Shown: piece after piece, positions 13,592 through 43,002 of the stretch
Numbering within the stretch: position 1 is the stretch's first letter
How the letters are laid out: each line of letters begins with the position of its first letter
IMG/VR virus record: IMGVR_UViG_3300020477_000013
Location: 64,001 to 128,000 of that record
Length of the DNA: 64,000 bases
Source: a virus
Taxonomy: Duplodnaviria > Caudoviricetes
Reading direction: 5' to 3' (one strand)
Notes under the pieces: generated by a model
Told to the model about the DNA's origin: nothing
What the model saw: only the letters and a program-made list of their open reading frames with translations
The model's database searches: none
Position numbers and translations under genes: made by a program

Positions 13592-14291
13592 ACTAAGGGT
13601 TGAGTTATATGATGACGGCATAGGGGCTGTTGAGTATGTTTCTCATATGGGTGATGATTTAACGATCGTGAATGCAGCACGTGTGTCTTTTGGCAAGCAC
13701 AAGGAAATACTTGATCAAAAAGATGCTAAGCTGATTAGGTATTTAATCAAACATCGTCATACGTCGACGCTGGAGCATAACATTGTCACTTTTCGCTTTA
13801 CTGTACCTCTTTTCATTCGCAGTCAGCATCATCGTCATCGCACTTGGAGCTACAACGAGATCTCTAGACGGTACACGGACGTTGATATCAAATTCTATGA
13901 AACAAAAGCACTCAGGACTCAACATGCATCAAACCGTCAGGCTTCGAATCCGAATGTTTTGCAAGACCCTATTATAGACCCTGGTGGAATAAGCGGCGGG
14001 AATCATGCCAGCTACCTAATTTCATCTCATCACTCTTCTTCTTTGAGGCTATATAATAAACTACTCGACAATGGCGTCTGTAGAGAACAGGCTCGTGGCA
14101 TTTTGCCCCAAAATATGTACACACAATATTATGGTACTGTGAATTTGAATAACCTGATAAAATTTGTAGAGCTGAGATCGCATGAGGGTGCACAATGGGA
14201 GATTCAGCGTGTCGCTGCTGCATGCATACAAATAGCATCTAGCTTGTGGCCTGAAACAATTTGCGCCTACAAAGAGATTAGGGAAATTTAG
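13581..14291 (+). CDS. thyX: Flavin-dependent thymidylate synthase
   Basis: HTSTLEH; RHRTWSYNEISRRY signature; REQARGILP. Confidence 0.95.
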   Translation: MKPELRVELYDDGIGAVEYVSHMGDDLTIVNAARVSFGKHKEILDQKDAKLIRYLIKHRHTSTLEHNIVTFRFTVPLFIRSQHHRHRTWSYNEISRRYTDVDIKFYETKALRTQHASNRQASNPNVLQDPIIDPGGISGGNHASYLISSHHSSSLRLYNKLLDNGVCREQARGILPQNMYTQYYGTVNLNNLIKFVELRSHEGAQWEIQRVAAACIQIASSLWPETICAYKEIREI

Positions 14292-25016: not shown

Positions 25017-25460
25017 ATGGAACTTCTTCGTGAGTATGTTAGGACATTATTAGAACAACACACCCAATCAGAGGACCCCTCTTCGGCCGAGCCTTTAAAC
25101 GGTGCTGTGACGGTCGCTGGGATCCCTATTAGCGTTGAAATTGCATCTACTCCAAAATTAAGAAAAGCCGGCCTAATGAACCGAGCGCATCTTGAGCGTG
25201 GAATGCTTTTTTGCTTTCCTGATTGCCGCCCTAGATCATTTTGGATGAAAAATACGCATGTGCCACTGTCGATAGCTTATGCAGATGATAACGGCATTAT
25301 AACAAATATAGAAGACATGGATCCGCATAGTCTCACCGGTGTAAAGTCAATAACTCCAGCTACTTATGCTTTGGAGATGGAGCAGGGGTGGTTTGATAAA
25401 AATGGGGTAGTTCCAGGAGACAAGATTGGGGGTCGCAATGTCAGAAAAAGTAAAAGTTAG
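25017..25460 (+). CDS. Leader-tagged DUF192 family protein
   Basis: MELLREYVRTLLEQ; VEIA...GLMNR...GMLF...FWMKNT..PLSIAY...ALEM. Confidence 0.85.
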   Translation: MELLREYVRTLLEQHTQSEDPSSAEPLNGAVTVAGIPISVEIASTPKLRKAGLMNRAHLERGMLFCFPDCRPRSFWMKNTHVPLSIAYADDNGIITNIEDMDPHSLTGVKSITPATYALEMEQGWFDKNGVVPGDKIGGRNVRKSKS

Positions 25461-26248: not shown

Positions 26249-26683
26249 ATGAGATGGATTCCTCCAAAGTCGCCCCACGGATTAATACAAGAAACCCTCT
26301 GGCCTGATGAGTGGAGAATCCTGGTTTCTTGCCTTTTATTAAACATGACTACACGAAGGCAGGTCGACAGGGTAATAGACCAGCTCTTTCATTTGTATCC
26401 AGGCCCTGTTAGTATGTCTATGGCAAAAGATGAAGATCTTCATGCAATTATAAAGCCCCTGGGGCTAGCAAACAAGCGTGTAAAGACCCTTAAGCGGTTT
26501 TCAACAGAGTACCTGGAGAAAGATTGGGCTTCACCTTTAGAGCTATATGGGTGTGGTAAATATGCTAACGATACGTGGAGAATTTTCTGTCAAGGGGAGT
26601 GGCGTGAGACAACACCCGATGACCATGCCCTTACTAACTATCATAACTATCTAAAATTAGTGAGAGAGCAAGAAAATGCCTGA
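26249..26683 (+). CDS. MBD4-like HhH DNA glycosylase (catalytic domain only)
   Basis: WIPPKSPHGLIQETLW..W..L..C..LN..T ... IKPLGL...R ... LYGCGKYANDTWRIFC..EW....PDDHAL..Y closely tracks the human MBD4 glycosylase domain (recalled alignment). Confidence 0.85.
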   Translation: MRWIPPKSPHGLIQETLWPDEWRILVSCLLLNMTTRRQVDRVIDQLFHLYPGPVSMSMAKDEDLHAIIKPLGLANKRVKTLKRFSTEYLEKDWASPLELYGCGKYANDTWRIFCQGEWRETTPDDHALTNYHNYLKLVREQENA

Positions 26684-27476
26684 AGGACCAGAGGTTAGAA
26701 AAATAGCACAGACTCTTGCTGGTGCCGTATCAGGTGAAACGCTTAACTCAGTAGAGGTTGTTAGCGGGAGATATTTAAAGAAAGACCCTTCCGGGATAAA
26801 CTTATTCAGGCAACAGCTTCCTAAAAAGGTTGTGGGAGCAGGATGTCACGGCAAATTTATGTATTGGATGCTTGACGATGAGTGCTCTATTTGGTCTACG
26901 CTGGGGATGACCGGCGAGTGGACGTTAGAAAAATCAAAGCATACAAGGTTAATTTTCAAGCTAGGGAATAATGAAGTATACTTTAATGATCAGAGAAATT
27001 TTGGTACGCTAAAATTTGTTCGCGGTAAATTTGCGCTAATAGAAAAACTGCAATCATTAGGCCCTGATATGTTGGCTGAGGATGTCACAGACTCAAATTT
27101 TATTTCTCAAATTCGAAAAAAACCTGGGTGGGAGATCACAAAAGCATTGATGGACCAGGCGATCGTCGCCGGCGTCGGGAATTATATTAAGTCTGATTCA
27201 TTATGGCTTTCAAAAATTAGTCCTCATAGAAAAGTATGCGACCTCAATGATGTTGAGCTTAAGTCATTGAATAATGCAATAAAGCGCATTATGAGGGAAA
27301 GCTTTAATACCGGTGGCTCAACAATAGAGACGTATAAGGATTCTACTAAAGAAGGAGAATACACAAGACGTTTTCTTGTTTATAATCAAAAAATGGATCC
27401 TGACGGAAATAAGGTCGTTAGGGAATTAACGGCAGACAATAGGACAACACATTGGTGTCCTGACATACAAATTTAG
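26676..27476 (+). CDS. Fpg/Nei family DNA glycosylase/AP lyase with zincless finger
   Basis: MPEGPEV; HGKFMY; LMDQAIVAGVGNY (H2TH); C-terminal DPDGNKV...RTTHWCP lacks the CxxC pairs. Confidence 0.9.
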   Translation: MPEGPEVRKIAQTLAGAVSGETLNSVEVVSGRYLKKDPSGINLFRQQLPKKVVGAGCHGKFMYWMLDDECSIWSTLGMTGEWTLEKSKHTRLIFKLGNNEVYFNDQRNFGTLKFVRGKFALIEKLQSLGPDMLAEDVTDSNFISQIRKKPGWEITKALMDQAIVAGVGNYIKSDSLWLSKISPHRKVCDLNDVELKSLNNAIKRIMRESFNTGGSTIETYKDSTKEGEYTRRFLVYNQKMDPDGNKVVRELTADNRTTHWCPDIQI

Positions 27477-27486
27477 GAGCTAAATT

Positions 27487-27711
27487 ATGAATGACAATGG
27501 TTTTAAATTTTCAGATGATGTTATTGCGCAGGTTGCAAAACTAATACAGGTTGCAATTCTAACTGGTACTGACATAGTTGATCACTTACGGCAGGTGAGG
27601 CTTAAGTTGACAGGAGATACGCTTTACGTAGATGATGATTATGCTTCATCATTTGAAGACAATATCCAGTCAATGCTTAAGGAGCTTGAAGAGAATGCCA
27701 CAGGCGAGTGA
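27487..27711 (+). CDS. Hypothetical protein
   Basis: ORF with RBS AGGAG. Confidence 0.75.
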   Translation: MNDNGFKFSDDVIAQVAKLIQVAILTGTDIVDHLRQVRLKLTGDTLYVDDDYASSFEDNIQSMLKELEENATGE

Positions 27712-28084
27712 CAATGATATGTTAGAAGAGATGTTTTTTCTTCGTGAAAGATTCATGTCTAGACTAACAGCAGAAAAGCCAGATCAGTATCCTACGTGGC
27801 CTATTGATTTAAGTGATAAGAGATCCCAGCAGCATGTTCGTGATATGGCCCTCCGCGGCGTCGAAGAGATGTTTGAGGCATTACAACATTTAAAAAACTG
27901 GAAGCCTCACCGTGACACAGAGGTAAGGGAATTCGATAAAGAAGAATTCATAGAGGAAATAGTAGATGCATTTAACTATTTTCTTTCTGTGTTAGTGTTA
28001 ACAGGTGTTAGTGCTGCTGATTTACACAATGCATACCTCAAGAAAGATTCTATTATCCATGATAGGCTTGAAAACGGCTACTAG
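27695..28084 (+). CDS. All-alpha dCTPase/dUTPase (T4 gp56-like)
   Basis: EEMFEAL..LKNWKPH; EEIVDAFNYF...G.SA..L...YLKK..IIHDRLENGY (gp56 ends KNQHNFERQDNGY). Confidence 0.8.
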   Translation: MPQASDNDMLEEMFFLRERFMSRLTAEKPDQYPTWPIDLSDKRSQQHVRDMALRGVEEMFEALQHLKNWKPHRDTEVREFDKEEFIEEIVDAFNYFLSVLVLTGVSAADLHNAYLKKDSIIHDRLENGY

Positions 28085-29554: not shown

Positions 29555-32500
29555 TTGGGTAAGACACCGAAGAAGTTTGTTGGGATGCATGCTCATGATG
29601 GATTTTCTACGTTCGATGGTTTAGGATATCCACAAGAGCATATAGATTTTGTAAAAAGTAATGATATGGACGCGTGGTGCTTGACAAACCATGGCCATAT
29701 GAATAGTTTTTGCCATGCATATTTGCATGCTGAAAAGTTAAATAAGGCTGGCGGAAATTTTAAGTTTGTCGCAGGTTGTGAGATGTATGTACATCCCGAC
29801 TTAGATGCCTGGCGCTTAGACTATGATATTCGCGCAGCAGCAAAGAAGGGTGACAAGGAGGCGTTGTTTAGGCTTCGCGATGAGAGGGAGAAGCTTATAA
29901 CGCCTATTACGATGAAGGTTGATGCCGATGATGAGACCCTAGATATATCCACCGATGAAGCTAGTCTTACAATCGAGAATGAGGAAGAAACGAAGTCCGG
30001 AAAATTTTACGACCCCATTAAGAGACGCCATCACTTAGTTGTTTTGCCAAAAACCTCCGAAGGCTTAAGGAGGTTATTTCACCTGGTGTCTAGAGGTTAC
30101 CTGGAGGGATTCTATAGGTTTCCACGTATTGACTATAAGATGTTAAAAGAGGCCGCCCAGGGTGGCCACCTGATGGTGTCTACCGCATGTCTAGGTGGGC
30201 CCTTGGCATATGAAGTTTTTCGTCACTTACAAGAGGTTGAGTTTGATTCACTGGATCCTAAGTGGATGGATGATCCGTCACTACAACAAAAGATATTAAA
30301 TGGCGTCTCAAATTCTTATGGTCAGTTGGCCGATGCGGTGGGTAAAGAGAATGTGTATGTTGAACTACAGTTTAATCACCTTGTTGCCCAACATCTAGTC
30401 AATAGGGCTCTCATTCAATTTGCAAATAATGAGGGCATGCAAGATAAGCTTGTAGTTACATGTGATTCTCACTATGCGCATCCTGAACACTGGAAAGAAC
30501 GTGAATTGTATAAAAAGCTGGGGTGGTTAAACTATAGGGAGTTTGATCCGTCAAAACTACCTCAGTCCAAGGAAGAGCTTAAGTGTGAGCTATATCCTAA
30601 AAACGCACAGCAGGTGTGGGAATCTTACATTAATACAACTAAAGAGTATGATTTCTATGACGATGATATAATTTGTGATGCCGTAGAGCGGACATATGAC
30701 ATTGTTCATGACGAAATTGGAGACATTCATCCAGATAAGTCTATGAAACTCCCAGATTATGTTGTTCCAGCTGGTAAGAGTGATGATAGGGCCCTGTTGG
30801 ATATGTGTAAGGAGGGATTAATTGATAGAGGTTTAGCAGATAAGCCTGAATATATAGACAGGCTAAAGAAAGAACTCTCCGTCATTAGGGAAAAGAAATT
30901 TTCAAAATATTTCTTAACGATGAAAGCTATCATGGATCTTGCCAGAGGTCATATGCTGGTCGGGCCCGGCCGTGGATCAGCTGCCGGCAGTTTGGTAGCA
31001 TATGTTTTATATATCACCAATGTTGACCCGATCGAATATGGGTTACTTTTTGAGCGTTTTCTGAGCGTTCATAGGCAGGGTGCACCTGACATTGATTCCG
31101 ATGTCGGGGATCGTGATAAGCTGATTGATCTGCTTAAAGAAAATTTCGGTGATAATAATATCGTACCAATCTCAAATTATAATACATTTAAACTTAAGTC
31201 ATTAGTCAAAGATATTTCTAGGTTTTACGGAATTCCATTTGATGAAGTCAATAAGGCACTAGCTCCTGTTGAGAATGACGTTAAGAAAGCTGTCTTTAAG
31301 AAAGGGACAGACAAGAACCTCTTTACTCTCTTGTATGAAGATGCAATTAAGTACAGCAAGTCATTCCAGGATTTTATTGAGAAATATCCAGAGATTGCAG
31401 AACCTATTGAGGTGCTATTTAAGCAAAATAAAGCCCTAGGCAGGCATGCAGGAGGAGTAATAGTCTCAGAAAATGTAGCTGAGCAGATGCCCTTGATCAT
31501 GGCTCGTGGCGAAATTCAGACACCCTGGGTAGAGGGTATGCACTACAAGCACCTCGAGGAGCTAGGATGGATTAAATTTGACCTCCTCGGCCTTGAGACG
31601 TTGCGCATCATTGAGAGATGCATAGCATTGATTCTACAGCGCCACGAGGGCCATGAATCACCCTCCTACTTGAATGTCAAAGAGTGGTTTAACGATCATA
31701 TGGATCCGAAGGTGATTGATTTTGATGACCAGCAGGTTTATGAGAAAATCTACCACGCTGCAAGATGGGCAGGTATTTTCCAGTGTACCGCAAGGGGAGC
31801 ACAAAATTTCTTTAAGAAAGGAAAGCCCTGTAGCATTATTGACATTGCAACGCTTACATCAATTTACAGGCCCGGGCCTCTTACCGCCGGCGTGCATGAC
31901 ATATATTTAGGTGCAAAATCTAATCCAGATGATGTCGACTATAAACACCCTCTTATTAAGCAGGTGCTTGAGCCTACATACGGTGCCATTATTTTTCAAG
32001 AGCAAGTTATGGAGCTATGTAATGTAGTAGCCGGATTCCCTCAAGAGGACTGTGACATGGTTCGCCGCACAATCATGAAAAGATCAGCATCAAAAGCTGA
32101 TGCCATGAAAAAGCAGGCCATGGAACTTAAGCAGAGGTTTGTTGATGGTGCAGTTTCAAACGGCGTTCCTTCACATGTTGCAGATGAGCTATATGACAAG
32201 ATCATGTTTTTCTCAGGATATGGCTTCAATAAGTCTCATGCTGTTTCATATGCGATTGACTCCTATTATTGTGCATGGCTTATGACGTACTATGAAGAGG
32301 AGTGGCTGTGCGCTTATTTGGAGGCAATGTCTAATAATCCCACGAAGCGTGCAAAGGCATTTAGCGAGATAAAGAAATTAGGATATAAGGTCGTACCTAT
32401 CGATATCAATTATGCTACTAAGAGCTGGACTATTCTGGAAGGCAAAAAATTTATGCCCTCGTTTTTATCTTGCAAGGGCGTCGGCGAGGCAGCTATTGAC

Positions 32501-33154
32501 GAGATTATTGAGGAACGCCCTTACAAGCAGGTGGATGATCTGTTATGGAATGATGTGGGAAAGTGGAAGCACTCTAAATTTAATAAGAGAGCACTTCAAA
32601 ATTTAATCAAGGTTCGTGCCTTTGGCTCTATGGATCTCGTTGGTGAAGGAAAGACTTTTTCTTCTTATTCACAAATGCATGAAATTTTAATAGAGAATAA
32701 TTCGTCTATTAAAAAATGGACAAAGCGAGATCCTGATAGGGGTAGAAATGCATTTCGAGAATGCCTAATAGAGACTGCTGGTATGCAAGAATGGTCCAAG
32801 ATGACGTTAGCAACCCACAGCGTTGATATAATGGGATCTTTCAATGCAGGTATGGTAGTTTCAGATGAGCTTCAAGACAAGTTGTCGGCTCGAGGTATTA
32901 ATTCCATCGATGAAATAGAGGGTAGGGATCTCTACTGGTTCGTCGTGACTGACATGAAGACAAAACTAACAAAACATAAAAAGCCTTATTTGCTTCTAAC
33001 AGTTACAGGTATTTCAGGAGGTAATTACAGGCTTTTTTGTTGGGGATGGAATGGAAAGCTTGAAATTCCCCAATACTCCCTGTGTGTAGCTGAAGTCGAT
33101 AAAAATGACTTTGGGTGTTCAACGCAACAAAGAAAGATAAAAGTTTTGAACTGA
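29555..33154 (+). CDS. dnaE: DNA polymerase III alpha subunit (family C)
   Basis: PHP HAH..S..DG, TNHG, GCE, CDSHY; GRGSAAGSLVAY; PDIDSD; GRHAGG; KFDLLGL; YGFNKSHA. Confidence 0.96.
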   Translation: MGKTPKKFVGMHAHDGFSTFDGLGYPQEHIDFVKSNDMDAWCLTNHGHMNSFCHAYLHAEKLNKAGGNFKFVAGCEMYVHPDLDAWRLDYDIRAAAKKGDKEALFRLRDEREKLITPITMKVDADDETLDISTDEASLTIENEEETKSGKFYDPIKRRHHLVVLPKTSEGLRRLFHLVSRGYLEGFYRFPRIDYKMLKEAAQGGHLMVSTACLGGPLAYEVFRHLQEVEFDSLDPKWMDDPSLQQKILNGVSNSYGQLADAVGKENVYVELQFNHLVAQHLVNRALIQFANNEGMQDKLVVTCDSHYAHPEHWKERELYKKLGWLNYREFDPSKLPQSKEELKCELYPKNAQQVWESYINTTKEYDFYDDDIICDAVERTYDIVHDEIGDIHPDKSMKLPDYVVPAGKSDDRALLDMCKEGLIDRGLADKPEYIDRLKKELSVIREKKFSKYFLTMKAIMDLARGHMLVGPGRGSAAGSLVAYVLYITNVDPIEYGLLFERFLSVHRQGAPDIDSDVGDRDKLIDLLKENFGDNNIVPISNYNTFKLKSLVKDISRFYGIPFDEVNKALAPVENDVKKAVFKKGTDKNLFTLLYEDAIKYSKSFQDFIEKYPEIAEPIEVLFKQNKALGRHAGGVIVSENVAEQMPLIMARGEIQTPWVEGMHYKHLEELGWIKFDLLGLETLRIIERCIALILQRHEGHESPSYLNVKEWFNDHMDPKVIDFDDQQVYEKIYHAARWAGIFQCTARGAQNFFKKGKPCSIIDIATLTSIYRPGPLTAGVHDIYLGAKSNPDDVDYKHPLIKQVLEPTYGAIIFQEQVMELCNVVAGFPQEDCDMVRRTIMKRSASKADAMKKQAMELKQRFVDGAVSNGVPSHVADELYDKIMFFSGYGFNKSHAVSYAIDSYYCAWLMTYYEEEWLCAYLEAMSNNPTKRAKAFSEIKKLGYKVVPIDINYATKSWTILEGKKFMPSFLSCKGVGEAAIDEIIEERPYKQVDDLLWNDVGKWKHSKFNKRALQNLIKVRAFGSMDLVGEGKTFSSYSQMHEILIENNSSIKKWTKRDPDRGRNAFRECLIETAGMQEWSKMTLATHSVDIMGSFNAGMVVSDELQDKLSARGINSIDEIEGRDLYWFVVTDMKTKLTKHKKPYLLLTVTGISGGNYRLFCWGWNGKLEIPQYSLCVAEVDKNDFGCSTQQRKIKVLN

Positions 33155-33205: not shown

Positions 33206-33739
33206 TTGAAGAAAAAACAGCACATAATCATTTTTGACGGTCCTGATATGTGCGGAAAAACTGAGATGGCGATGGAATTATCGGCTGTTCTTGGCGTTCC
33301 GTATTTTAAAAATGAAAGTGAATGGGAATTTTTTGAAAAAGATCCAAGCTATTTTAGGAATGCGTTATCATATGGTGACACATTCTTTTATGCTTACTTA
33401 AGGCAAACAGGCGCATCTGTAATCTTAGACAGGTCATACCCATCAGAGTGGGTATATTCTAAGGTATTTTTACGAGTGACAAACGAAAAAGCGCTAAGCG
33501 AAGTAGATGCAATGGCTCATGGGATTCACACGAAGATAATAATTCCATACAGGAGTTCTTATGAAGGCTTAGAGGACCAGTTTTCATCCATAACGTCTGA
33601 CAAAATGCTAGAAATAGAGAACCTATATAGAAAATTCGCGGACTGGACTAAGTGTGATGTATTATTTCTGAATGTCGATTCAGAAGATTTAGATGATGAG
33701 ATATTTCAAATATTAAAATTCATAAACAAGGAAAATTAA
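33206..33739 (+). CDS. Thymidylate-kinase-like dNMP kinase
   Basis: IFDGPDMCGKT P-loop; ILDRSYPSEWVY. Confidence 0.85.
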   Translation: MKKKQHIIIFDGPDMCGKTEMAMELSAVLGVPYFKNESEWEFFEKDPSYFRNALSYGDTFFYAYLRQTGASVILDRSYPSEWVYSKVFLRVTNEKALSEVDAMAHGIHTKIIIPYRSSYEGLEDQFSSITSDKMLEIENLYRKFADWTKCDVLFLNVDSEDLDDEIFQILKFINKEN

Positions 33740-34773
33740 TGAAGATAGGAATTAGCTATTGGGGATTTTGCGAGAAATTTCAAGACTCGACTGTCTCAAA
33801 TACCCCTGATGGACACAGGTATGGTAGGCCAGTTTTGGTCGATGCGCTACTTGAGAGCGGTCATGAAGTTTATGCGTTGCAAGACCAGCGGGAAGATGTT
33901 AAGTACGATGGTTTAGATTATAGGTTCGCCGGTGATGGGTATCCTGACTTGGATGTCCTATTCGTAGAGTGGCGGTGGCCGACATATAAGAATAGCGGCG
34001 AAAATAAATTTGAACCCGACCTAGACAGGCAAACGCAGCTGTTGGATTACTACCATGGAAATATACCCATCGTTTCGTGGGATACCGACCTGAAGATGAC
34101 AGCTGATGATGAAGTTCGCTGGCCGCTTATGACTATTGCTGATCCATCATTTGATCCTAAGCATATGACAAGGGATAGGTTACGGTTAACATTTTGGTCT
34201 GACTTTCGTCAGATAATAGACACGACCACCGGACCGGTCGAGTTTGGGTATGTGGGTAATAACTATGAGCGTGACAAGATGTTTATGGAGTATTATTCAA
34301 AGCCGTCGCTGGTATTACGGGACAATGGTGTCCAGACCAAAGTTCACGGTAACTGGCTACAGCGCTCCCCTGAGAGGTCTAGCCCTGAAGATTTGATACG
34401 GATGCATCCTAATATTGCGTTCGGCAAGCGGGTATCATTTCATGATTCGATGCATCTCTTAAATGAATTTATCTGTACTGTCCACATAACAAAGCCAGGG
34501 TATGCAGATGTAGGGTTTGCATCACCTAGATACCTGGAAAACATAGTCGTAGGTACACCTGCGCTGGTACCATATGAGTTTAAATATAGCTCCATACTAG
34601 GTGAAGAATGGGTTGTCCATGGTCATTCCGACGTCATCGAGAAAGTTAGGTATTTAAAGAATCTTGGTTGCGATGAAAGAGATGATGTCGTCCGGCATCA
34701 GATGTACAATCTTTTAAAGCACCATAATTTTAGTGTTAATAATGTTGTTGAGTTTATTGAATCGCTGGTTTAA
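33739..34773 (+). CDS. GT-B glycosyltransferase resembling T4 DNA beta-glucosyltransferase
   Basis: MKIGISYWG; FGYVGNNYERDK; VHGNW; ASPRYLENIVVGTPALVPYEF (cf. BGT ITLRVWETMASDAVMLIDEEF, recalled). Confidence 0.7.
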   Translation: MKIGISYWGFCEKFQDSTVSNTPDGHRYGRPVLVDALLESGHEVYALQDQREDVKYDGLDYRFAGDGYPDLDVLFVEWRWPTYKNSGENKFEPDLDRQTQLLDYYHGNIPIVSWDTDLKMTADDEVRWPLMTIADPSFDPKHMTRDRLRLTFWSDFRQIIDTTTGPVEFGYVGNNYERDKMFMEYYSKPSLVLRDNGVQTKVHGNWLQRSPERSSPEDLIRMHPNIAFGKRVSFHDSMHLLNEFICTVHITKPGYADVGFASPRYLENIVVGTPALVPYEFKYSSILGEEWVVHGHSDVIEKVRYLKNLGCDERDDVVRHQMYNLLKHHNFSVNNVVEFIESLV

Positions 34774-34784
34774 GGAGAATCATT

Positions 34785-35777
34785 GTGACGCGTGTTCTTA
34801 TAACAGGGGTGGCTGGCCTCTTGGGTGCAAATTTTTCTAGGTATCTATTAGACAAGGGATATGAGGTTATAGGAATTGATAACCTGTCCGGAGGTTTCGA
34901 GGATAGTGTGGATCCTCGGGTTCGGTTCTATCCTGTAGATTTACAGGACTTGGATGTCGTAAATAACATTTTTCGTATCGAGAAACCTGACTATGTGTAT
35001 CATTTTGCCGCATATGCAGCCGAGGGATTAAGTCCATTTATCAGGAATTTTAATTACGTTAATAATGTCTTATGCTCCGTAAACGTTATTAATTCATGCA
35101 TCAAGTACGATGTGAAAAAACTAGTCTTTACATCTTCAATGGCGGTGTATGGATCTGGTTCACCACCCTTTAGGGAAGACCAACGCCCTTCCCCTGAAGA
35201 CCCATATGGTATAGCAAAATATGCTGTAGAGATGGATCTTGCATTAGCATACGAGCAGTTTGGGCTAGAATATACAATCATCCGCCCCCATAATGTGATA
35301 GGGATATACCAAAATATCTGGGATCGCTATAGAAATGTTATAGGTATCTGGATCAGAAAAGCTCTTAATGGTGAGGCCTTGACGATATTCGGGGACGGCA
35401 CTCAGGTTAGAGCATTTTCAGATATCAGGTTTTATATGGAGCCATTTGAGAAGGCTATGTATGATTATCATGGGGAATCCTTCAATATAGGGGCAGACAA
35501 GTACTATACAATTAATGATGCTTCAAAAATTGTCCAGGATGTTGCTTCTGGATTTGGCTATGACGTAGGTAGGGAATGGCTAGAGGCTAGAAATGAAGTA
35601 CATACTGCATACTGCGACCACAGTAAGGCAAAAGAGTTACTAGGGTTTGAGGACAACACAGATTTTGAGTTAATGGTGAGAACGATGTTTAAATGGGCAA
35701 TGTCGCAGCCTGATAGGGATGTCAAGTATAAGGATTATGAGATAGATAAGGGAATTTACAGTTTCTGGAAAAAGTAG
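34785..35777 (+). CDS. NAD-dependent NDP-sugar epimerase/dehydratase (extended SDR)
   Basis: TGVAGLLG; FTSSMAVYG; PYGIAK (YxxxK). Confidence 0.92.
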   Translation: MTRVLITGVAGLLGANFSRYLLDKGYEVIGIDNLSGGFEDSVDPRVRFYPVDLQDLDVVNNIFRIEKPDYVYHFAAYAAEGLSPFIRNFNYVNNVLCSVNVINSCIKYDVKKLVFTSSMAVYGSGSPPFREDQRPSPEDPYGIAKYAVEMDLALAYEQFGLEYTIIRPHNVIGIYQNIWDRYRNVIGIWIRKALNGEALTIFGDGTQVRAFSDIRFYMEPFEKAMYDYHGESFNIGADKYYTINDASKIVQDVASGFGYDVGREWLEARNEVHTAYCDHSKAKELLGFEDNTDFELMVRTMFKWAMSQPDRDVKYKDYEIDKGIYSFWKK

Positions 35778-35788
35778 GGGTATGGTTA

Positions 35789-36790
35789 ATGAACGTATAT
35801 GATAACTTTACACAATGCTATTTAGGCTTAATAGACCAGGTATATAACACACCTGATTTTATCTCTAGTCCTCGTGGGCAATTGGTGAAAGAGAAATTAG
35901 CAGTTAAGTTCCAGATTAATGATCCTAGGAGCAGAATTCCTTATACGGCTGCACGAAAATTTTCGTTGCACTATATGGTTGCTGAGTTACTTTGGTATTT
36001 GTCTGGAGAAGATTCTACGGAGTGGATATCAAATTACTCGTCTTTCTGGAGGAAGATATCCGACAACGGAAAGACTGCTAATTCTGCATATGGGGCCCGA
36101 ATTTTTAAAACACATGACAGAATTGCAGGTGGCCAATTAGTTCAGTGGGATTATGTGGTCAACGAACTCCGTAAAGACAACGACTCAAGACGAGCCGTTA
36201 TACATATACGTTCGCCATGGGATTCTACGCATGCGAAGCTTGATGTACCCTGTACACTCGCACTGCAGTTTTTTATTCGAGATAATAAGTTGCATCTTGT
36301 TGTTAATATGCGATCCTCTGATATAATACTAGGCATTGCTTACGACATTCCTGCATTTACTTTTATGCAAGAGCTTATGGCTGTGCAGCTTGGTGTGGGC
36401 TTGGGGACATATACACATATTAGTAATTCATTACACATTTACGAGAGGCATTTCAATATGGCAGAAGAAATTTTGTTGCCCGAGAACCAGACTGAGTCAT
36501 TGATGTGTCAGATATCTCGGGGCTCGATGCCCCCCCTCACGACAAACTTGCCTCCTATTCGTGAGCTATACCTATTTGAGGGTGCCATACGTAACTGTAG
36601 TACGGCTGAAGAAATTTATGAGTGCTTAGAAGAACTAGAAACTATTGATATTCATATAGATCATATAGACTACTGGCTTGATTGGGGAAAGGTTTTAGCA
36701 TCACATCGCCTTAAGAAGCTTGGGTTTCTAAATGAGTCAAATGATATGTTAAACTCTACTTCTTATGTTGGTTACCATTTACTATCTTAA
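35789..36790 (+). CDS. Thymidylate-synthase-superfamily dCMP-modifying enzyme (dCMP hydroxymethylase-like)
   Basis: Catalytic DVPC155; MRSSDIILGIAYD186 with Asp at the E. coli ThyA Asn177 / T4 gp42 Asp179 position; HISNSLHIYERH. Confidence 0.85.
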   Translation: MNVYDNFTQCYLGLIDQVYNTPDFISSPRGQLVKEKLAVKFQINDPRSRIPYTAARKFSLHYMVAELLWYLSGEDSTEWISNYSSFWRKISDNGKTANSAYGARIFKTHDRIAGGQLVQWDYVVNELRKDNDSRRAVIHIRSPWDSTHAKLDVPCTLALQFFIRDNKLHLVVNMRSSDIILGIAYDIPAFTFMQELMAVQLGVGLGTYTHISNSLHIYERHFNMAEEILLPENQTESLMCQISRGSMPPLTTNLPPIRELYLFEGAIRNCSTAEEIYECLEELETIDIHIDHIDYWLDWGKVLASHRLKKLGFLNESNDMLNSTSYVGYHLLS

Positions 36791-36805: not shown

Positions 36806-37819
36806 ATGAATAGTTGTTTAGTTACAGGAGGCTGCGGATTTATAGGCAGCGCACTGGTAAGTAAGTTAGTCGAGGCAGGATGGAAGGTTGATGTAGTCGA
36901 CGACCTATCAGGCGGAGATATTACAGCACTTGGTGACTTGCAGAAGAGGGTTATTCACGTCGACATGGTTCCTCTTTTTGAACATAGGCATGAGCCGTCC
37001 AGGCTTGACAGCGAAGTGCTGGTAATCACAGGCGATTTTTCTCATGAAAATATCTTTACAAGAATAAAAGATAAGAGATATGATTATGTTTTTCATCTAG
37101 CTGCTAGGCCAAGGGTAGCATACTCGGTAGAGGACCCTATAACAACGATGGAACACAACCTGTTTAAGACGACTGCACTTTTTCATGCATGCGTAAAGTC
37201 AGTTAAGAGGGTCATTTTTTCAAGTTCATCTTCTGTATTTGGCAGGGTAGAAGAATTCCCTACCCCCGAAGAGTACCCCAAGAACCCCTGTTCACCATAC
37301 GCATTACAGAAGTATTCATGTGAGCAATTTGCATCTCTTTTTGTTGAGCTATATGGAATTGATATAGTCGGGCTGAGGTATTTTAATGTATACGGTCCTG
37401 GCCAGCTAGGTGACTCTCCGTATTCGACTGTTGTCTCTGCGTGGTGTTATGCGATCCAGCAAGATGCTGAACTAAGGCTCGATGGTGATGGTACACAGTC
37501 TAGGGACTTTACATATATCGATGATGTTGTTTCCGCAAACATGCTCGCGGCAACATCAACCAATGAGATTGCGGGCCACATGTTTAACATAGGAAAAGGA
37601 AAGTACCATTCTCTTAACGAGATCCTAGGGTTATTTAAAGACAGATACGGTGACCTTCCACTTAGGCATGCACCAACGCGCGCTGGCGATGTGCACAAAA
37701 CCCATGCAGATGTTAGCAATGCCGGGTCATTATTGGGTTATAATCCTCAAACTAGCATGGAGGATGGCTTGAATAAGACATTTGCCTGGTGGGAATCTTT
37801 AAGTGAGGTGGATGATTAA
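36806..37819 (+). CDS. NAD-dependent NDP-sugar 4-epimerase (extended SDR)
   Basis: TGGCGFIG; FSSSSSVFG; SPYALQK; LRYFNVYGP; RDFTYIDD. Confidence 0.92.
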   Translation: MNSCLVTGGCGFIGSALVSKLVEAGWKVDVVDDLSGGDITALGDLQKRVIHVDMVPLFEHRHEPSRLDSEVLVITGDFSHENIFTRIKDKRYDYVFHLAARPRVAYSVEDPITTMEHNLFKTTALFHACVKSVKRVIFSSSSSVFGRVEEFPTPEEYPKNPCSPYALQKYSCEQFASLFVELYGIDIVGLRYFNVYGPGQLGDSPYSTVVSAWCYAIQQDAELRLDGDGTQSRDFTYIDDVVSANMLAATSTNEIAGHMFNIGKGKYHSLNEILGLFKDRYGDLPLRHAPTRAGDVHKTHADVSNAGSLLGYNPQTSMEDGLNKTFAWWESLSEVDD

Positions 37820-38398
37820 ATGAGAGATCCTGAATTTATTATCTTTACGGGGCCCATGTTCGGTTCTAAGACTACCCGCATGCTGGCCACATTGGAAAGA
37901 TATACATACCAAAATAAGGATGTACTTGCCTTTAAGCCAAAAATGGATGACAGGTATAGCGAGAGTGAGATTTGCACCCACTCAGGCTTGAAATTTCCTG
38001 CCTATGTCGTGGCTACCGGCGCTGAGATTTTGGAGCGTGTCGAAACTATAGCTCCGGACATTGTTGCTGTCGATGAGGCATTTATGATTGACGGGTGTGC
38101 AGAAGCGGTGTTGGAGCTGTTTAGGGCTGGAAAGACAATCGTTATTTCATCCCTACAATTATCAGCTAGCGGGAATGTCTTTGTGGAGGTTAGGGATATG
38201 ATGCCATGGGCTACAAAGATTGAAGTTTGTCCAGCGGTCTGCACTGTTACCGGTAGGGATGCGTACTATACCCACAGAAAAGTAGAGGGATTAGGCGAGA
38301 TAGTTATCGGGGGTATAGATTTATATGAGCCTAGGAGTTGGGAACACCATCCACTTATGAACCACAGGAATATTCATGCCCATCCCAAGCCCCAATGA
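37820..38398 (+). CDS. tdk: Thymidine kinase (TK1 type)
   Basis: GPMFGSKTT; VAVDEAF; VIGG..YEPR. Confidence 0.9.
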   Translation: MRDPEFIIFTGPMFGSKTTRMLATLERYTYQNKDVLAFKPKMDDRYSESEICTHSGLKFPAYVVATGAEILERVETIAPDIVAVDEAFMIDGCAEAVLELFRAGKTIVISSLQLSASGNVFVEVRDMMPWATKIEVCPAVCTVTGRDAYYTHRKVEGLGEIVIGGIDLYEPRSWEHHPLMNHRNIHAHPKPQ

Positions 38399-39209
38399 GA
38401 TAGATACCGTCATTTATCATGCAAACTGTGCAGATGGCTTTGGCGCAGCATATGTTGCATGGAGGCATCTAGGCGCTAATGCTTCTTATTTGCCGTGGCA
38501 CCATGGGGATCCCCCTCCTGATGTGGAGGGTAAAAATGTTCTCATTGTAGATTTTTCATTTTCTAAATCAGATATTATCAAGATGAATTCCTGCGCGAAT
38601 TCGCTGGTTGTTCTAGATCATCACATTTCCGCAAAAAAGAATCTCAAAGGTTTGTCCTATGCAATAATAGACGTTACGAGGTCTGGCGCAATGATGGCAT
38701 GGGATTTTTTCTATGAAAACTGTGCTGCACCCCTATTAATTCAATATATTCAAGATCGTGATTTGTGGCGCTGGTCCCTTGAGGAATCTAGGGAATTTTC
38801 GGCGGGGCTTAATACAGTACCTTTTGATTTTAACGCATATGCTAGCCTTGAAGGTGAAGCTGCAGTTGCTGAGTTAATTGAGAAAGGCAAGGCAATCCTC
38901 GAGCACATTGATGCAGAGGTCTATTATGCCTGTAAGGGCTCCACAAGAAAGAGGTTCTTGGGATATGATGTTGCTATTGTAAATTCACGAAACTATAAAT
39001 CAGAGATTGGCTCTCGACTGTCTAAAGAATGTGATTTTGCGCTAATATGGCATTGTGACCAGTACTCAAGCATAAGCATAAGTCTCAGGGCCCAGGAGAA
39101 TTCGGTTGATGTTTCCGAAGTAGCATCAAAATTTGGTGGCGGTGGCCATAGTTGCGCCGCAGGATTCAGGGTCGATGATTTATCGTTTTTAAGTATGCTT
39201 TTAGATTGA
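38376..39209 (+). CDS. DHH/DHHA1 phosphoesterase
   Basis: YHANCADG; IVDFS; LDHH; GGGGHSCAAG. Confidence 0.9.
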   Translation: MPIPSPNEIDTVIYHANCADGFGAAYVAWRHLGANASYLPWHHGDPPPDVEGKNVLIVDFSFSKSDIIKMNSCANSLVVLDHHISAKKNLKGLSYAIIDVTRSGAMMAWDFFYENCAAPLLIQYIQDRDLWRWSLEESREFSAGLNTVPFDFNAYASLEGEAAVAELIEKGKAILEHIDAEVYYACKGSTRKRFLGYDVAIVNSRNYKSEIGSRLSKECDFALIWHCDQYSSISISLRAQENSVDVSEVASKFGGGGHSCAAGFRVDDLSFLSMLLD

Positions 39210-39280: not shown

Positions 39281-42200
39281 ATGACCGATAGAATCTCTTG
39301 GCTTCCTGCTTGCAATGCAACATTAACGAAAAAATTAGCTGCTGAAAGAAAGCAGCTTTTAGAGTCGTATGCCCTGAAGAAAGGCAGCGTTCGCCTGCTT
39401 GTAGAGGGTACATCTTATTATGATGCCCTGAATCGTAAGATAGAGATAGCACAATTAAATGAAGTCATATATCCCTATATGCTATTTTCTAGGGCAACAG
39501 GAAATGATTTTTATTCTAGGGTGGTCCGTAAAACTATAGCAGAATTGCGGCGCAGGGGCCTCGTCGATGAGGCCTCACCATTATTGCAAGAGGGTTTCTG
39601 GGATTCAGTTCAATCTGGAATCGGTAATTTTGCTGGTGGTGTTGACAGCTTTCTTAAGAAGATAAAATTAAAGAAAGAGCCGAAAGGGTGGGAAGAAGCC
39701 CAACGGATATTTCAGAAGATAGCCGAGAAAGAGGGTCACCAGGTCGTAAAAGACCTGGTTAAAGCAATAGACAGTGAGGTAAAATCGCTAGAGTCTGGCC
39801 TGGGTTCGAAGCCAAAAGATTCCAACTTTCCTGTCAACAAAAATAGAAATGCTTTCTTCTCAGGTGTTAATACAATCGCGACGACATATGATTCGATCGT
39901 CGCGGCTACTAAAAAAGATCCTGGCGATGATGGCTATATGCCAGTAGATATTGCTAATGAGATAATTGAGCAGCTGCGGATTGTTACCCAAAAATATATG
40001 GCTGATACTGAGAGAGACAAGGGTGGTATGTATGCGTCTTTCGGCGGCGGTGATGCTAAACAAGAGGCTGAGGCCGCTAATGAGACCGAGTATCATGAAG
40101 AGGATGTTCTAGCAGAGCAGGATGATGAAGGAGCTGAGGGGGCAGGGGATAAAAAGAAAGAGGAAGAAGAAAAGATTGATCCCGATGCAGAGGCTGAAAA
40201 AATGATGAGGGGTCAAAGTTCTCAAGTCTTTAATCGAATGACTAGCCTTAAGGCACCTCTCATCATTGCAGCTATGGGTGCAGCTATGGGGGCCCTAGGG
40301 TGGATTGCATACCAGCCATGGTTTCATGATTGGGTGACGGATTTTCTAGGTATTGCAAAGACTGATACTGAAACGATTAGTAACAGTTGGGAATCTACTC
40401 TTAAGGATTCAATGGACAGGGCTAACCCTGAAATGACTGAGCTCGGTCAGATAGAGGCCGGTGGCGGAGGCCTCGCGAAGCAGGTCTCCCGACTTCTCGG
40501 GCTAGGTGACAGTGAGAACCTTTTAGGGAAAGATGCTTCTCTTGAAGATCTCAAGAACGCTGCTTTAAAAGTGGGAGATGGTGATCTAGACAAGGGGCTC
40601 AGGGGTATTGCCGGCCTCACTGAAGGACGTGGGAATCCAGAGGAGGCATTCAAGTGGATGAAAGGTGCCATTGAGGATCCACAAATGGTCGGTGCTGAAA
40701 ATATTAGTGGCGAAGGCAGTCTTTGGAAGCTGTGGCTCGGTGGTACTGAACGATCCGGTGCTCCTGGTCGACAAATATTAAGTAAAGCAGGTAAGGCCTT
40801 TGCGGATTCGGTGACCGTCGATAAAGGCGCCGGTCCACAGATGCCTATCGACGCCGTCAGGAAGCTGGAAAAAACTAAAGAATTCTGGACGACAATGCCG
40901 AAAGGGATGTTTAGCGTCGGTGTTGGTAACAAGTTGCAGGGCTGGATTATTAAGAAAGCAGCCAAAGCTGTCGCGAAGCAGGCAGCAAAGACAGTTGTAG
41001 CTTCAGCAACTGTTACTACTACCTCATCCGGAGCGCTAGGCGTTTCTACTATGCTAGCATCCGCAGCCCCAGTTTTGGCCGGTATCGGCGTCTCTGCTGT
41101 CGCTGCAGGTGCTGCGCTAGCTGCCATCCGCCACAGAGCAAAGACAAAGTCAAGGATGGGTACATTAAATTCCTTACTTCAGACCCTAAATTTATTAGCA
41201 CCCCAGCCAGTTCCAGACGTCAAGCCTGATGAGGGTGAGAAATCGAAGGTTACTATAGTTTTAAATAATCCCGCACCGGCTGCCACCGGTGGCAAGGTTA
41301 AGAAAGAGAGTCTTATGCATGCTCTAGGGTTGCTAAACGAAAGGACTGACGTCACGATTACTGGTCTGGGCGGTAATGATGAGCTCAAGAAGACTGGGGG
41401 GGTCGCTAAATTTTCTCTGGCCAGCGTTCCCTTAGATATAACCCCCAGCGTGACTGATCTCATGTCAATACCATTTATAGAAAAGGGAATTAATGATTTT
41501 CTCCCTGATTTAAACTTGGCCGACCCGAATGTAGAAATTGAGATTATTGATAAGAGGAAGGCAGAAGAAATTCCTGAAAAGCCACCGCAAAAAGAGGCTC
41601 CGCCAGTGCCTGTTGTTCCTGCAGAGATAGCGAAGGGGAATAATGCGGTAGTTGTTTTTGATACTGACGGCGCGAAGGTCTGGCGTATTCTCAAGAAAAA
41701 AACATTTCAGAAATATGCCCAAGATGCCAAGCGGTCAAAGGACAAAGATGCTCCAGAGTTTGCAGACAGGTTTTCACGATATGACAGTATTCTTGCAAAA
41801 TTACGTGCAGACGGCGTATTTGTCAATTCAGATGTTTTAGAGGCTGAGCTTTCAAAAATTTCTTCTGGACAAGATGGCGATGCTTATCGTGCGACTTACA
41901 CAAGGACGAGGAAAGACAAGAAGACCGGTAAAGAAAAGAAGAGAAAATCTACCACTGGAGGATTTACTTCTGCTGGAGAAGTTAAGAGTATCGGTGATAT
42001 ACGAAAGAATATCAAAGGTGCTCCGGGTTCACGCCCACCCCGAAATGCAGGCGAAATGACAATAATATACTTGATCGGGTCTAATACATTGCAGGCCCTT
42101 CAGGGTGCCGGCTTGGATGATAAGAAGTCTCGGCAGGTTGCTATGAAGGCTATATCTGATTGGGCATCTGCCGGGAAACGCCCGAGTATAGCAGATCTAG

Positions 42201-42403
42201 GCGTTGACGATAAGGCAGCCAAGGTTTTAAAGAAGGCTAGCTTGGCAGAGGCTTTAGGCATGCAACAAGCACACAGGTACGCAATAGTTGATGTAACCCC
42301 TAAATTATTTAAACGAATGATTCGTGAAATAAGGGATGCCTCAAATAATTCAGGCGGCTCAATATCCCGAGACCGCCTCCTTACTTTAGCTGGTGTAAAG
42401 TAG
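39281..42403 (+). CDS. Large putative virion/ejection protein with hydrophobic helices and a terminal RLLTLAGVK motif
   Basis: Several L-x-E sites (LLE, LNE, LQE, LAE); hydrophobic AAMGAAMGALGWIAY and LAGIGVSAVAAGAALAAI. Confidence 0.7.
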   Translation: MTDRISWLPACNATLTKKLAAERKQLLESYALKKGSVRLLVEGTSYYDALNRKIEIAQLNEVIYPYMLFSRATGNDFYSRVVRKTIAELRRRGLVDEASPLLQEGFWDSVQSGIGNFAGGVDSFLKKIKLKKEPKGWEEAQRIFQKIAEKEGHQVVKDLVKAIDSEVKSLESGLGSKPKDSNFPVNKNRNAFFSGVNTIATTYDSIVAATKKDPGDDGYMPVDIANEIIEQLRIVTQKYMADTERDKGGMYASFGGGDAKQEAEAANETEYHEEDVLAEQDDEGAEGAGDKKKEEEEKIDPDAEAEKMMRGQSSQVFNRMTSLKAPLIIAAMGAAMGALGWIAYQPWFHDWVTDFLGIAKTDTETISNSWESTLKDSMDRANPEMTELGQIEAGGGGLAKQVSRLLGLGDSENLLGKDASLEDLKNAALKVGDGDLDKGLRGIAGLTEGRGNPEEAFKWMKGAIEDPQMVGAENISGEGSLWKLWLGGTERSGAPGRQILSKAGKAFADSVTVDKGAGPQMPIDAVRKLEKTKEFWTTMPKGMFSVGVGNKLQGWIIKKAAKAVAKQAAKTVVASATVTTTSSGALGVSTMLASAAPVLAGIGVSAVAAGAALAAIRHRAKTKSRMGTLNSLLQTLNLLAPQPVPDVKPDEGEKSKVTIVLNNPAPAATGGKVKKESLMHALGLLNERTDVTITGLGGNDELKKTGGVAKFSLASVPLDITPSVTDLMSIPFIEKGINDFLPDLNLADPNVEIEIIDKRKAEEIPEKPPQKEAPPVPVVPAEIAKGNNAVVVFDTDGAKVWRILKKKTFQKYAQDAKRSKDKDAPEFADRFSRYDSILAKLRADGVFVNSDVLEAELSKISSGQDGDAYRATYTRTRKDKKTGKEKKRKSTTGGFTSAGEVKSIGDIRKNIKGAPGSRPPRNAGEMTIIYLIGSNTLQALQGAGLDDKKSRQVAMKAISDWASAGKRPSIADLGVDDKAAKVLKKASLAEALGMQQAHRYAIVDVTPKLFKRMIREIRDASNNSGGSISRDRLLTLAGVK

Positions 42404-42474: not shown

Positions 42475-43002
42475 GTGATTAGAAAGTTGTTACATACCTT
42501 AGGTGACATGATAACCAGCGCGCATCCTCACTTAGAGAAGGGCGCTGTGAGGCTATCATTGGAGAGATTTTTGTCAAATTTACTTAGATCAGACAGGCCG
42601 GATTGGGATGACGTGTGGATGGATTTTGCATATTCCATAGCACGTCGGTCTTATGACCCCAGACATCAAGTGGGTGCAGTTGTTGTCACAGGTGATAATA
42701 CACAGGTGCTAGCTATTGGTTATAATGGTAATTATTCCGGTGGCCCAAATGAGGTAGAGTCTGATGTTCCTGGAGAGTCGGGTATGATACATGCTGAGAT
42801 TAATGCATTGCTGAAGATGGATTATAACACACCAAAAACGAAGAAGCTATATGTAACGCTGTCTCCATGTAAGATGTGTGCGAAGTCAATCATTAATGCA
42901 GGGGTAGATGAAGTCATCTATGATACCGAATATAGGGATACATCTGGATTGGAAATTTTAAAATCTTCTCACATTAAGGTAAGGGCCTTCGGTGGTAAGT
43001 GA
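42475..43002 (+). CDS. dCMP deaminase
   Basis: VGAVVV; GYNG; HAEINAL; SPCKMCAK. Confidence 0.93.
   Translation: MIRKLLHTLGDMITSAHPHLEKGAVRLSLERFLSNLLRSDRPDWDDVWMDFAYSIARRSYDPRHQVGAVVVTGDNTQVLAIGYNGNYSGGPNEVESDVPGESGMIHAEINALLKMDYNTPKTKKLYVTLSPCKMCAKSIINAGVDEVIYDTEYRDTSGLEILKSSHIKVRAFGGK

Follow-up and report, generated by a model that had tools for sequence, protein, structure and literature searches.

Which nucleotide does the thymidylate synthase (TS) homolog encoded at positions 35789-36790 act on, and what does it make? The gene lies in the 64,000-nucleotide stretch analysed here (the window), which corresponds to bases 64001-128000 of a 201.6 kb IMG/VR viral contig (IMGVR_UViG_3300020477_000013) with an estimated completeness of 73%. 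Nearly all contig genes are on the + strand, and a T4-type major capsid protein is encoded among them (Gp23 family, 1e-65). We consider it likely, with a probability of roughly 0.78, that 35789-36790 encodes a folate-dependent dCMP 5-hydroxymethylase from a long, MilA-shaped branch of the TS superfamily; substrate, product and cofactor are predictions. The following features of the gene bear most directly on this reading, with equivalents given in Escherichia coli ThyA and T4 gp42:

35789-36790, + strand: TS-fold enzyme, predicted dCMP 5-hydroxymethylase (P0001), an open reading frame of 333 aa
36083-36091, + strand: Ser99-Ala100-Tyr101, equivalent to the T4 Ser94-x-Tyr96 hydroxymethylase motif
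36242-36244, + strand: Asp152 codon (gat), three residues before Cys155; E. coli L143, T4 D145; water activation in hydroxymethylation
36251-36253, + strand: Cys155 codon (tgt), catalytic nucleophile; E. coli C146, T4 C148
36320-36322, + strand: Asp178 codon (gat), pterin-binding; E. coli D169, T4 D171
36344-36346, + strand: Asp186 codon (gac), cytosine-specifying residue; E. coli N177, T4 D179

Direct reading of the DNA gives the Cys155 and Asp186 codons and the motif M-R-S-S-D-I-I-L-G-I-A-Y-D around Asp178 and Asp186. Cys155 and Asp186 are 31 residues apart, as are C146 and N177 in E. coli ThyA and C148 and D179 in T4 gp42, and the columns match in two independent alignments. An earlier note on this DNA had reported the same codons and spacing and had taken the Asp to indicate dCMP rather than dUMP; the positions are borne out, and a cytosine-specific reading gains support from the signature residues and family conservation described below. 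The catalytic Cys and the Arg, His and Tyr residues that bind phosphate and ribose are in place: C155, R134, R135, R175, H216 and Y218 fall in the columns of E. coli C146, R126, R127, R166, H207 and Y209. The canonical ThyA residues Leu143 and Trp83, which keep out water, and His147 are replaced by D152, I90 and T156, respectively. At the W83 position both the query (Ile90) and T4 gp42 (Val85) have a small hydrophobic residue. The local context reads L-D-V-P-C at Asp152/Cys155, and N-S99-A-Y101-G compared with N-S-N-Y-G in T4.

Both Pfam and PHROG label the protein a thymidylate synthase (Pfam Thymidylat_synt, PF00303: residues 11-234, E 4e-33, 115 bits against a cut-off of 24.3), and it is 35% identical to the SP10 dUMP hydroxymethylase, which has a similar C-terminal region. 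That it is another true thymidylate synthase, or else a dUMP hydroxymethylase, is nonetheless extremely improbable: Asp replaces the Asn177 that SP10 and E. coli ThyA both keep, the protein falls below all NCBIfam TS cut-offs (the best TS equivalog scores 105 bits against a cut-off of 327 bits), and, as the earlier note had stated, a ThyX is encoded elsewhere in the window. These comparisons support a cytosine-specific TS homolog over a second true thymidylate synthase.

Diagnostic residues and the predicted product

The query was aligned with enzymes of known product and read at published diagnostic positions, which are given here in E. coli numbering (5hm, 5-hydroxymethyl; 5m, 5-methyl):

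E. coli ThyA (EC 2.1.1.45; dTMP): 143 L, 147 H, 169 D, 177 N
T4 gp42 (5hm-dCMP): 143 D, 147 T, 169 D, 177 D
RB69 gp48 (5-hydroxy-dCMP): 143 E, 147 T, 169 N, 177 D
SP10 (5hm-dUMP): 143 D, 147 N, 169 D, 177 N
PaMx74 thyA (5m-dCMP; from a phage that replaces cytosine by 5-methylcytosine, 5mC): 143 N, 147 P, 169 D, 177 D
Query and all 16 included family members (predicted 5hm-dCMP): 143 D, 147 T, 169 D, 177 D

The query is identical to T4 gp42 (EC 2.1.2.8; 1b49, 6a9b, 6l18) at four of four positions and differs from ThyA, RB69 gp48, SP10 and PaMx74. Its likeness to gp42 takes in the catalytic Cys, the Asp 31 residues after it, the Asp at -3, the Thr that follows the Cys, Ser-x-Tyr, the Asp169 equivalent and an Arg/Ser pair. 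Positions 147 and 177 were the two best separators of cytosine-modified from unmodified metavirome contigs in MetaGPA (PMC8670742). According to a study of the T4 ternary complex, Asp (or Glu) at -3 from the Cys and a Ser/Tyr pair form the signature of dCMP hydroxymethylases (dCH), and a T4 D145N mutation abolished 5hm-dCMP formation (PMC6400193). Because the diagnostic residues match those of T4 gp42, the predicted product can be narrowed to 5hm-dCMP; the signature residues point to this compound and not to 5-hydroxy-dCMP or 5-methyl-dCMP. The earlier note had held that the product could not be read from sequence, which seems too cautious, as Asp at -3, Ser-x-Tyr and the kept Asp169 all favor 5hm-dCMP.

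These residues are conserved in a large family. A large protein collection held 1697 relatives at E<=1e-10, and the best 120 of these were 53-79% identical to the query. Almost every one of the 120 had a length of 320-345 aa, and Tara Oceans and further marine assemblies, with contigs as long as 308 kb, were the source of many. More than 120 clusters formed at 90% identity were at least 53% identical to the TS homolog, and an exhaustive HMMER search of 1.84 billion representatives found 11,689 relatives at E<=0.001, with 642 at E<=1e-30. Across 41 aligned members (54-79% identity), C155, D186, D152, D178, R134, R135, R175, S176, H216, Y218 and Y101 were invariant, as were D298 and G328 in the C-terminal region. 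Nearest-relative counts refer to the 150 closest 50%-identity representatives: 148 have Asp at the 177 equivalent (the other two are fragments gapped there), 142 carry the full D/T/D/D signature, and none has Asn at 169 or 177, although the Asn of RB69 gp48, a positive control, was visible in the same alignment. Given that Cys155 and Asp186 are invariant in the 41 members, with Asp in 148 of the 150 representatives, the pair is not a chance occurrence.

The family data bear on another possible activity, that of a flavin- and O2-dependent 5-hydroxy-dCMP synthase like RB69 gp48, DLP3 gp80 and RL38J1 gp216, for which the sugar would sit directly on the C5 hydroxyl (glycosyl-5-hydroxycytosine). 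Those three enzymes share with the query a TS fold, Asp at 177 and an acidic residue at 143, and the phages that encode them have glycosylated cytosine in their DNA (PMC13326640). They differ in being flavin-bound and in having Asn at the D169 position, which marks 5-hydroxy-dCMP synthases: nine of nine diverse D169N homologs made 5-hydroxy-dC (Lee et al., NAR 2026, PMC13326640). The query family retains Asp178 without exception among the 41 members, and the equivalents of W80, G173 and Y209 are W87, G182 and Y218, as in folate-dependent enzymes, where RB69 gp48 has A, V and F. We therefore judge a 5-hydroxy-dCMP synthase unlikely, and in our comparison it is mainly the folate-type residues Asp178, Trp87, Gly182 and Tyr218 that separate 5-hydroxymethylation from 5-hydroxylation.

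Were the protein a dCMP methyltransferase (a 5-methyl-dCMP synthase, known from Xanthomonas phage Xp12 and Pseudomonas phage PaMx74), the nearby deaminase would make dTMP or dTTP from its product. Asp at 177 alone turns TS into a dCMP methylase, according to the passage of PMC8670742 that cites Liu and Santi (1992), and a gene of the dCMP deaminase family lies ~5.7 kb downstream, a pairing seen in 5mC phages (bioRxiv 10.1101/2024.12.05.627091). This activity is nevertheless very unlikely. Asp152 is of the hydroxymethylase type, whereas PaMx74 has at this position the Asn that prevents 5hm-dCMP formation in the T4 mutant, along with Pro at 147, and a tree of the family joins its enzyme to E. 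coli ThyA and not to the query. Where TS has a C-terminal tail that closes over the folate during hydride transfer, the query has a helical domain. Unlike Pamexviruses, which carry a dihydrofolate reductase (DHFR), the 201.6 kb contig has no match to DHFR (PF00186), though it is only ~73% complete and a host DHFR could serve. Furthermore, dTMP already comes from ThyX, and a neighboring glycosyltransferase with sugar epimerases calls for a hydroxyl to which a sugar can be attached.

Fold, C-terminal domain and substrate sugar

An AlphaFold2 model of the TS homolog, built from the 41-sequence alignment, reached a pLDDT of 90.9 and a pTM of 0.91, and Foldseek matched it to about 400 TS-family chains in the PDB at E<=0.001. 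The top match was MilA (5jnh/5jp9), the CMP 5-hydroxymethylase of Streptomyces rimofaciens, over 329-337 columns (TM 0.82, 32% identity), while ordinary TS matched over ~245 columns with TM 0.55-0.60. The same ranking came from phmmer against solved proteins, with E-values of 3e-46 for MilA, ~1e-22 to 1e-18 for ordinary TS and 9e-14 for T4 dCH.

The C-terminal part of the protein extends ~100 residues past the Pfam match:

36479-36787, + strand: C-terminal five-helix domain of MilA type (approximately residues 231-333), from the predicted structure and Foldseek

The earlier note had described a helical extension absent from standard ThyA. The extension is real, with five predicted helices (231-244, 257-268, 273-285, 293-310 and 314-322), but it is no novelty of this protein: since the whole length of the model superposes on MilA, the extension is, on the predicted structure, the known MilA-type domain. 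In MilA the extra domain consists of five helices (alpha9-alpha13) distant from the active site, and truncations are insoluble (PMC5175136). D298, W299, R307, K310, G328 and Y329 are conserved in the domain, and a related C-terminal region with a conserved YW...R.K motif occurs in phage G gp319 and the SP10 dUMP hydroxymethylase. T4 gp42 (246 aa) and RB69 gp48 lack the region altogether, and the homologs of VPE25 (281 aa) and RsoM2USA (278 aa), which are shorter than the query, mostly lack it.

The resemblance to MilA (5jnh, 5b6d, 5jp9), the closest solved relative by both sequence and structure with the C-terminal domain included, could suggest a CMP hydroxymethylase like MilA or BcmA that feeds a nucleoside-type small molecule or an RNA modification rather than DNA. 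MilA has Asp at 143 and 177 in common with the query, and even its numbering of Cys155, Asp186, His216 and Tyr218 coincides. However, the CMP preference of MilA is set by Lys133' and Ala176, and an A176S/K133R mutant prefers dCMP (PMC5175136). The query carries Arg134 and Ser176, the deoxy-type pair of that switch mutant, of TS and of T4 dCH, so that 2'-deoxyribose would fit. This R/S pair is found in 142 of the 150 nearest representatives and the K/A pair in just four. MilA acts in bacterial antibiotic biosynthesis, whereas the query lies in a phage DNA-precursor operon beside a replicase, a thymidine kinase (TK) and a Tmk-like kinase, and its predicted role is in a phage DNA pathway. We regard a CMP-specific enzyme as highly improbable, and a dCMP 5-hydroxymethylase with MilA architecture as the reading that best fits these residues.

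Neighboring genes and related contigs

Genes putatively involved in making, supplying and modifying the nucleotide surround the TS homolog, several of them in a tightly packed same-strand row (kinase, GT-B glycosyltransferase, epimerase, TS homolog, epimerase, TK) that directly follows a DnaE-type polymerase:

13581-14291, + strand: ThyX, flavin-dependent true thymidylate synthase (Pfam Thy1, 2.8e-47)
27632-28084, + strand: all-alpha nucleoside triphosphate pyrophosphohydrolase, candidate dCTPase (gp56-like), 150 aa (phrog_12184, 3e-17; phrog_173, 4e-10)
29555-33154, + strand: DnaE-type polymerase
33206-33739, + strand: Tmk-like P-loop nucleotide kinase, candidate hydroxymethyl-dCMP (hm-dCMP) kinase (phrog_761, 2e-12)
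33739-34773, + strand: GT-B glycosyltransferase (P0121), 344 aa, candidate DNA glycosyltransferase (Pfam Glyco_trans_1_2, 4e-7)
34785-35777, + strand: short-chain dehydrogenase/reductase (SDR) nucleotide-sugar epimerase 1, GalE-like (Pfam Epimerase, 3e-48; PDB 4zrm, UDP-glucose 4-epimerase, 1e-46)
36806-37819, + strand: SDR nucleotide-sugar epimerase 2, WbgU/WbpP/TviC/GalE-like (Pfam, 5e-51; PDB 6dnt, 3e-53; WbgU, 2e-45)
37820-38398, + strand: thymidine kinase (Pfam TK, 6e-29)
38376-39209, + strand: DHH/DHHA1 phosphoesterase, overlapping the end of the TK gene (phrog_4771, 1e-80)
42475-43002, + strand: dCMP deaminase (Pfam dCMP_cyt_deam_1, 6e-21; phrog_174, 4e-46)

Family assignment and a weak pairwise similarity support the gp56-like reading of 27632-28084: T4 gp56 matches phrog_12184 and phrog_173 as well, and BLASTP of the putative dCTPase to T4 gp56 gives an E-value of 2e-6. 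Profiles for MazG (PF03819) and trimeric dUTPase (PF00692) had no match on the contig. A link between the hydroxymethylase and the Tmk-like kinase is supported by fusions among the relatives. Twenty-one of the 150 nearest representatives, P0280 and P0285 among them, are 470-550 aa long, and in two of three long relatives tested a thymidylate-kinase-like domain lies at the C-terminus of the TS homolog (Pfam Thymidylate_kin, 8e-6 and 1e-7, both sub-threshold); the fused domain resembles the window kinase weakly (BLASTP 3e-4). P0285 has Ala at the S167 position.

The neighboring 344-aa protein is recognizable as a glycosyltransferase mainly by its fold. A phmmer search of the 344-aa protein against PDB sequences returned nothing meaningful, and the GT-B fold was seen only in the predicted structure (AlphaFold2, pLDDT 94.9), for which T4 beta-glucosyltransferase was the top Foldseek match (1qkj, 2e-11). 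VIA-align also placed T4 beta-glucosyltransferase first (Z 22.1, root-mean-square deviation 3.6, 304 residues aligned), tied within 1 Z unit with PimA, BshA and TarM, and T4 alpha-glucosyltransferase reached Z 19.9. The fold ranking thus cannot single out T4 beta-glucosyltransferase, and the label of DNA glycosyltransferase draws on gene context and not on fold. Both SDR proteins, the only two Epimerase-family genes on the contig, resemble UDP-hexose or UDP-N-acetylhexosamine 4-epimerases; NCBIfam names no substrate for either, with all matches under cut-off and galE the best.

The nearest homologs in deposited phage genomes are those of Enterococcus phage VPE25 and Bacillus phage G (gp319), which are 39-40% identical to the query and share its D/T/D/D residues. 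Both adjoin glucosyltransferase genes of recognizable T4 alpha or beta type, unlike the transferase here. The VPE25 homolog (~40% identity by tblastn), the closest one from a cultured phage with experimental data, lies beside a dUTPase-like gene and a T4-type beta-glucosyltransferase, and VPE25 DNA is resistant to bisulfite conversion (PMC4999554). Searches of 50,697 phage records with the operon (nucleotide search) and with the kinase and glycosyltransferase (tblastn) gave no match, so the operon context has no cultured relative in that set.

Related contigs keep a core of these genes, and the sugar module appears to be swapped between them. In all five contigs compared, the TS homolog lies just after DnaE together with a Tmk-like kinase and a protein in the transferase slot. 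Downstream, dCMP deaminase is present in all five, TK in four and DHH in three. The sugar-nucleotide genes differ: L014 and L015 have a single epimerase, L017 has two, as does the window, and L016 (2760-5424) has an epimerase with a DAO-type FAD oxidoreductase and a short-chain dehydrogenase. In L018 a UDP-galactopyranose mutase (GLF) and an epimerase lie by the TS homolog, with an MT-A70 methyltransferase nearby (L018:8032-9156 and 13222-13824). The transferase slot is occupied either by the 344-aa GT-B family or by an unrelated family of ~430-440 aa without a Pfam match, whose members L015:5678-7000 and L017:1952-3238 (428-440 aa) share 55% identity and show 17-19% identity to the GT-B protein. 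This second family may be an alternative DNA transferase, and the differing sugar-nucleotide genes suggest that the DNA glycan varies between phages of the lineage.

Several points weigh against a 5-hydroxymethylase. The order of kinase, glycosyltransferase and TS homolog is identical in the 5-hydroxycytosine phages DLP3 (gp78-80), RB69 (gp45-48) and RL38J1 (gp214-216) (Table 1, PMC13326640), whose synthases also match MilA best by structure (PMC13326640), and so neither context nor fold separates 5-hydroxymethylation from 5-hydroxylation. The window kinase and RB69 gp45 fall in the same PHROG (phrog_761), with weak direct similarity (BLASTP 5e-7), and the mutase of L018 adjoins the TS homolog as in RL38J1. 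The D169N rule was proposed recently, on the basis of a limited number of enzymes, and the query is just 27% identical to T4 gp42. A phylogeny with other TS families, which the earlier note had proposed, supported two pairings in a maximum-likelihood tree of 26 TS-family sequences (E. coli ThyA with PaMx74, 99/98, and SP10 with phage G), but very long branches dominate it, most deep forks are unsupported and the position of the query family is not resolved. Finally, with the contig ~73% complete, the absence of DHFR or of further transferases is weak evidence. The folate-type residues at Asp178, Trp87, Gly182 and Tyr218 are the main features that continue to favor a dCMP 5-hydroxymethylase over a 5-hydroxy-dCMP synthase.

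Other genes near the operon may be recorded here. The DHH/DHHA1 protein might dephosphorylate nucleotides of the modified pool. Between its gene and the dCMP deaminase, a 1040-aa open reading frame (39281-42403) with Ala/Lys/Glu-rich low-complexity stretches and no Pfam family looks like an insertion, since in L014 and L016 the deaminase gene comes immediately after the DHH gene. Two adjoining DNA glycosylase genes precede the modification operon by a few kb: one of the HhH-GPD family (26249-26683; Pfam 8e-7) and a complete one of Fpg/Nei type (26676-27476; three Pfam domains). The related contig L015 also has an Fpg gene upstream of DnaE. The pair might tolerate, proofread or make use of modified cytosine. 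A DUF192 protein is encoded at 25017-25460. In four related contigs a protein of ~235-245 aa with a Sod_Fe_C domain (Fe/Mn superoxide dismutase, C-terminal) is encoded a few genes downstream of the dCMP deaminase:

L014:16289-17014: Sod_Fe_C protein
L015:11666-12364: Sod_Fe_C protein
L016:10334-11047: Sod_Fe_C protein
L017:9439-10179: Sod_Fe_C protein

A putative glycosylation pathway and its meaning

The gene neighborhood probably represents a T4-like pathway to glycosylated 5-hydroxymethylcytosine (5hmC) with a galactose-type sugar. Its T4 analogues are the gp56-like pyrophosphatase, a nucleotide kinase, a glycosyltransferase resembling beta-glucosyltransferase, dCMP deaminase and TK. It differs from T4 in that the kinase is Tmk-like rather than gp1-like, dTMP would come from ThyX rather than the ThyA-type td, and two phage epimerases would contribute to the sugar-nucleotide supply.

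The analysis establishes the fold, the active-site residues with their conservation, and the gene order; every step of the pathway is predicted. The gp56-like pyrophosphatase would convert dCTP to dCMP, both removing dCTP and supplying substrate to the hydroxymethylase, a homodimer by homology. In the active site, Cys155 would attack C6 of dCMP while Asp186 reads and protonates the N3/N4 face of cytosine, and Arg134' and Ser176 would accommodate the 2'-deoxyribose. Methylene-tetrahydrofolate, held by Asp178 and Trp87, would pass its one-carbon unit to C5, the C5 proton would be removed by a water held by Ser99 and Tyr101, and a water activated by Asp152 would add to the exocyclic methylene to give 5-hydroxymethyl-dCMP and tetrahydrofolate. 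The Tmk-like kinase, with host nucleoside diphosphate kinase, would then raise hm-dCMP to hm-dCTP for incorporation by the phage DnaE-type polymerase. The GT-B enzyme may glycosylate 5hmC in DNA with a UDP-sugar remodelled by the two 4-epimerases, which is probably galacto-configured. Separately, dTMP would be supplied by ThyX, TK and dCMP deaminase.

The phage thus probably replaces and sugar-coats the cytosine in its DNA. Whether the sugar is new is a more tentative matter: it is possible that the lineage has a novel glycosylated 5hmC, the sugar of which would be a hexose, hexosamine or uronic acid of galacto configuration, produced by the phage 4-epimerases and attached by a transferase family without a characterized member. 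The use of Asp at 177 as a flag for cytosine-modifying TS homologs is established and has been applied to IMG/VR, and long-form MilA-like TS homologs of phages are likewise known. Our data add the combination of MilA architecture with deoxy-type residues, the abundance of the family in marine jumbo phages, and a neighborhood that suggests a variable DNA glycan other than glucose.

If these predictions are correct, the enzyme would be a natural version of the engineered A176S/K133R switch of MilA from CMP to dCMP, and enzymes of antibiotic pathways and of phages would be linked within one long-form clade. A large and abundant group of uncultured marine T4-type jumbo phages would have glycosylated 5-hydroxymethylcytosine in place of cytosine. 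If the more tentative reading of the sugar holds as well, a single conserved core of MilA-shaped hydroxymethylase and kinase would underlie a range of DNA glycans. This would bear on how such phages evade restriction and CRISPR systems, on the recovery and sequencing of their DNA in viromes, and on the search for new DNA glycosyltransferases and modification-tolerant polymerases.

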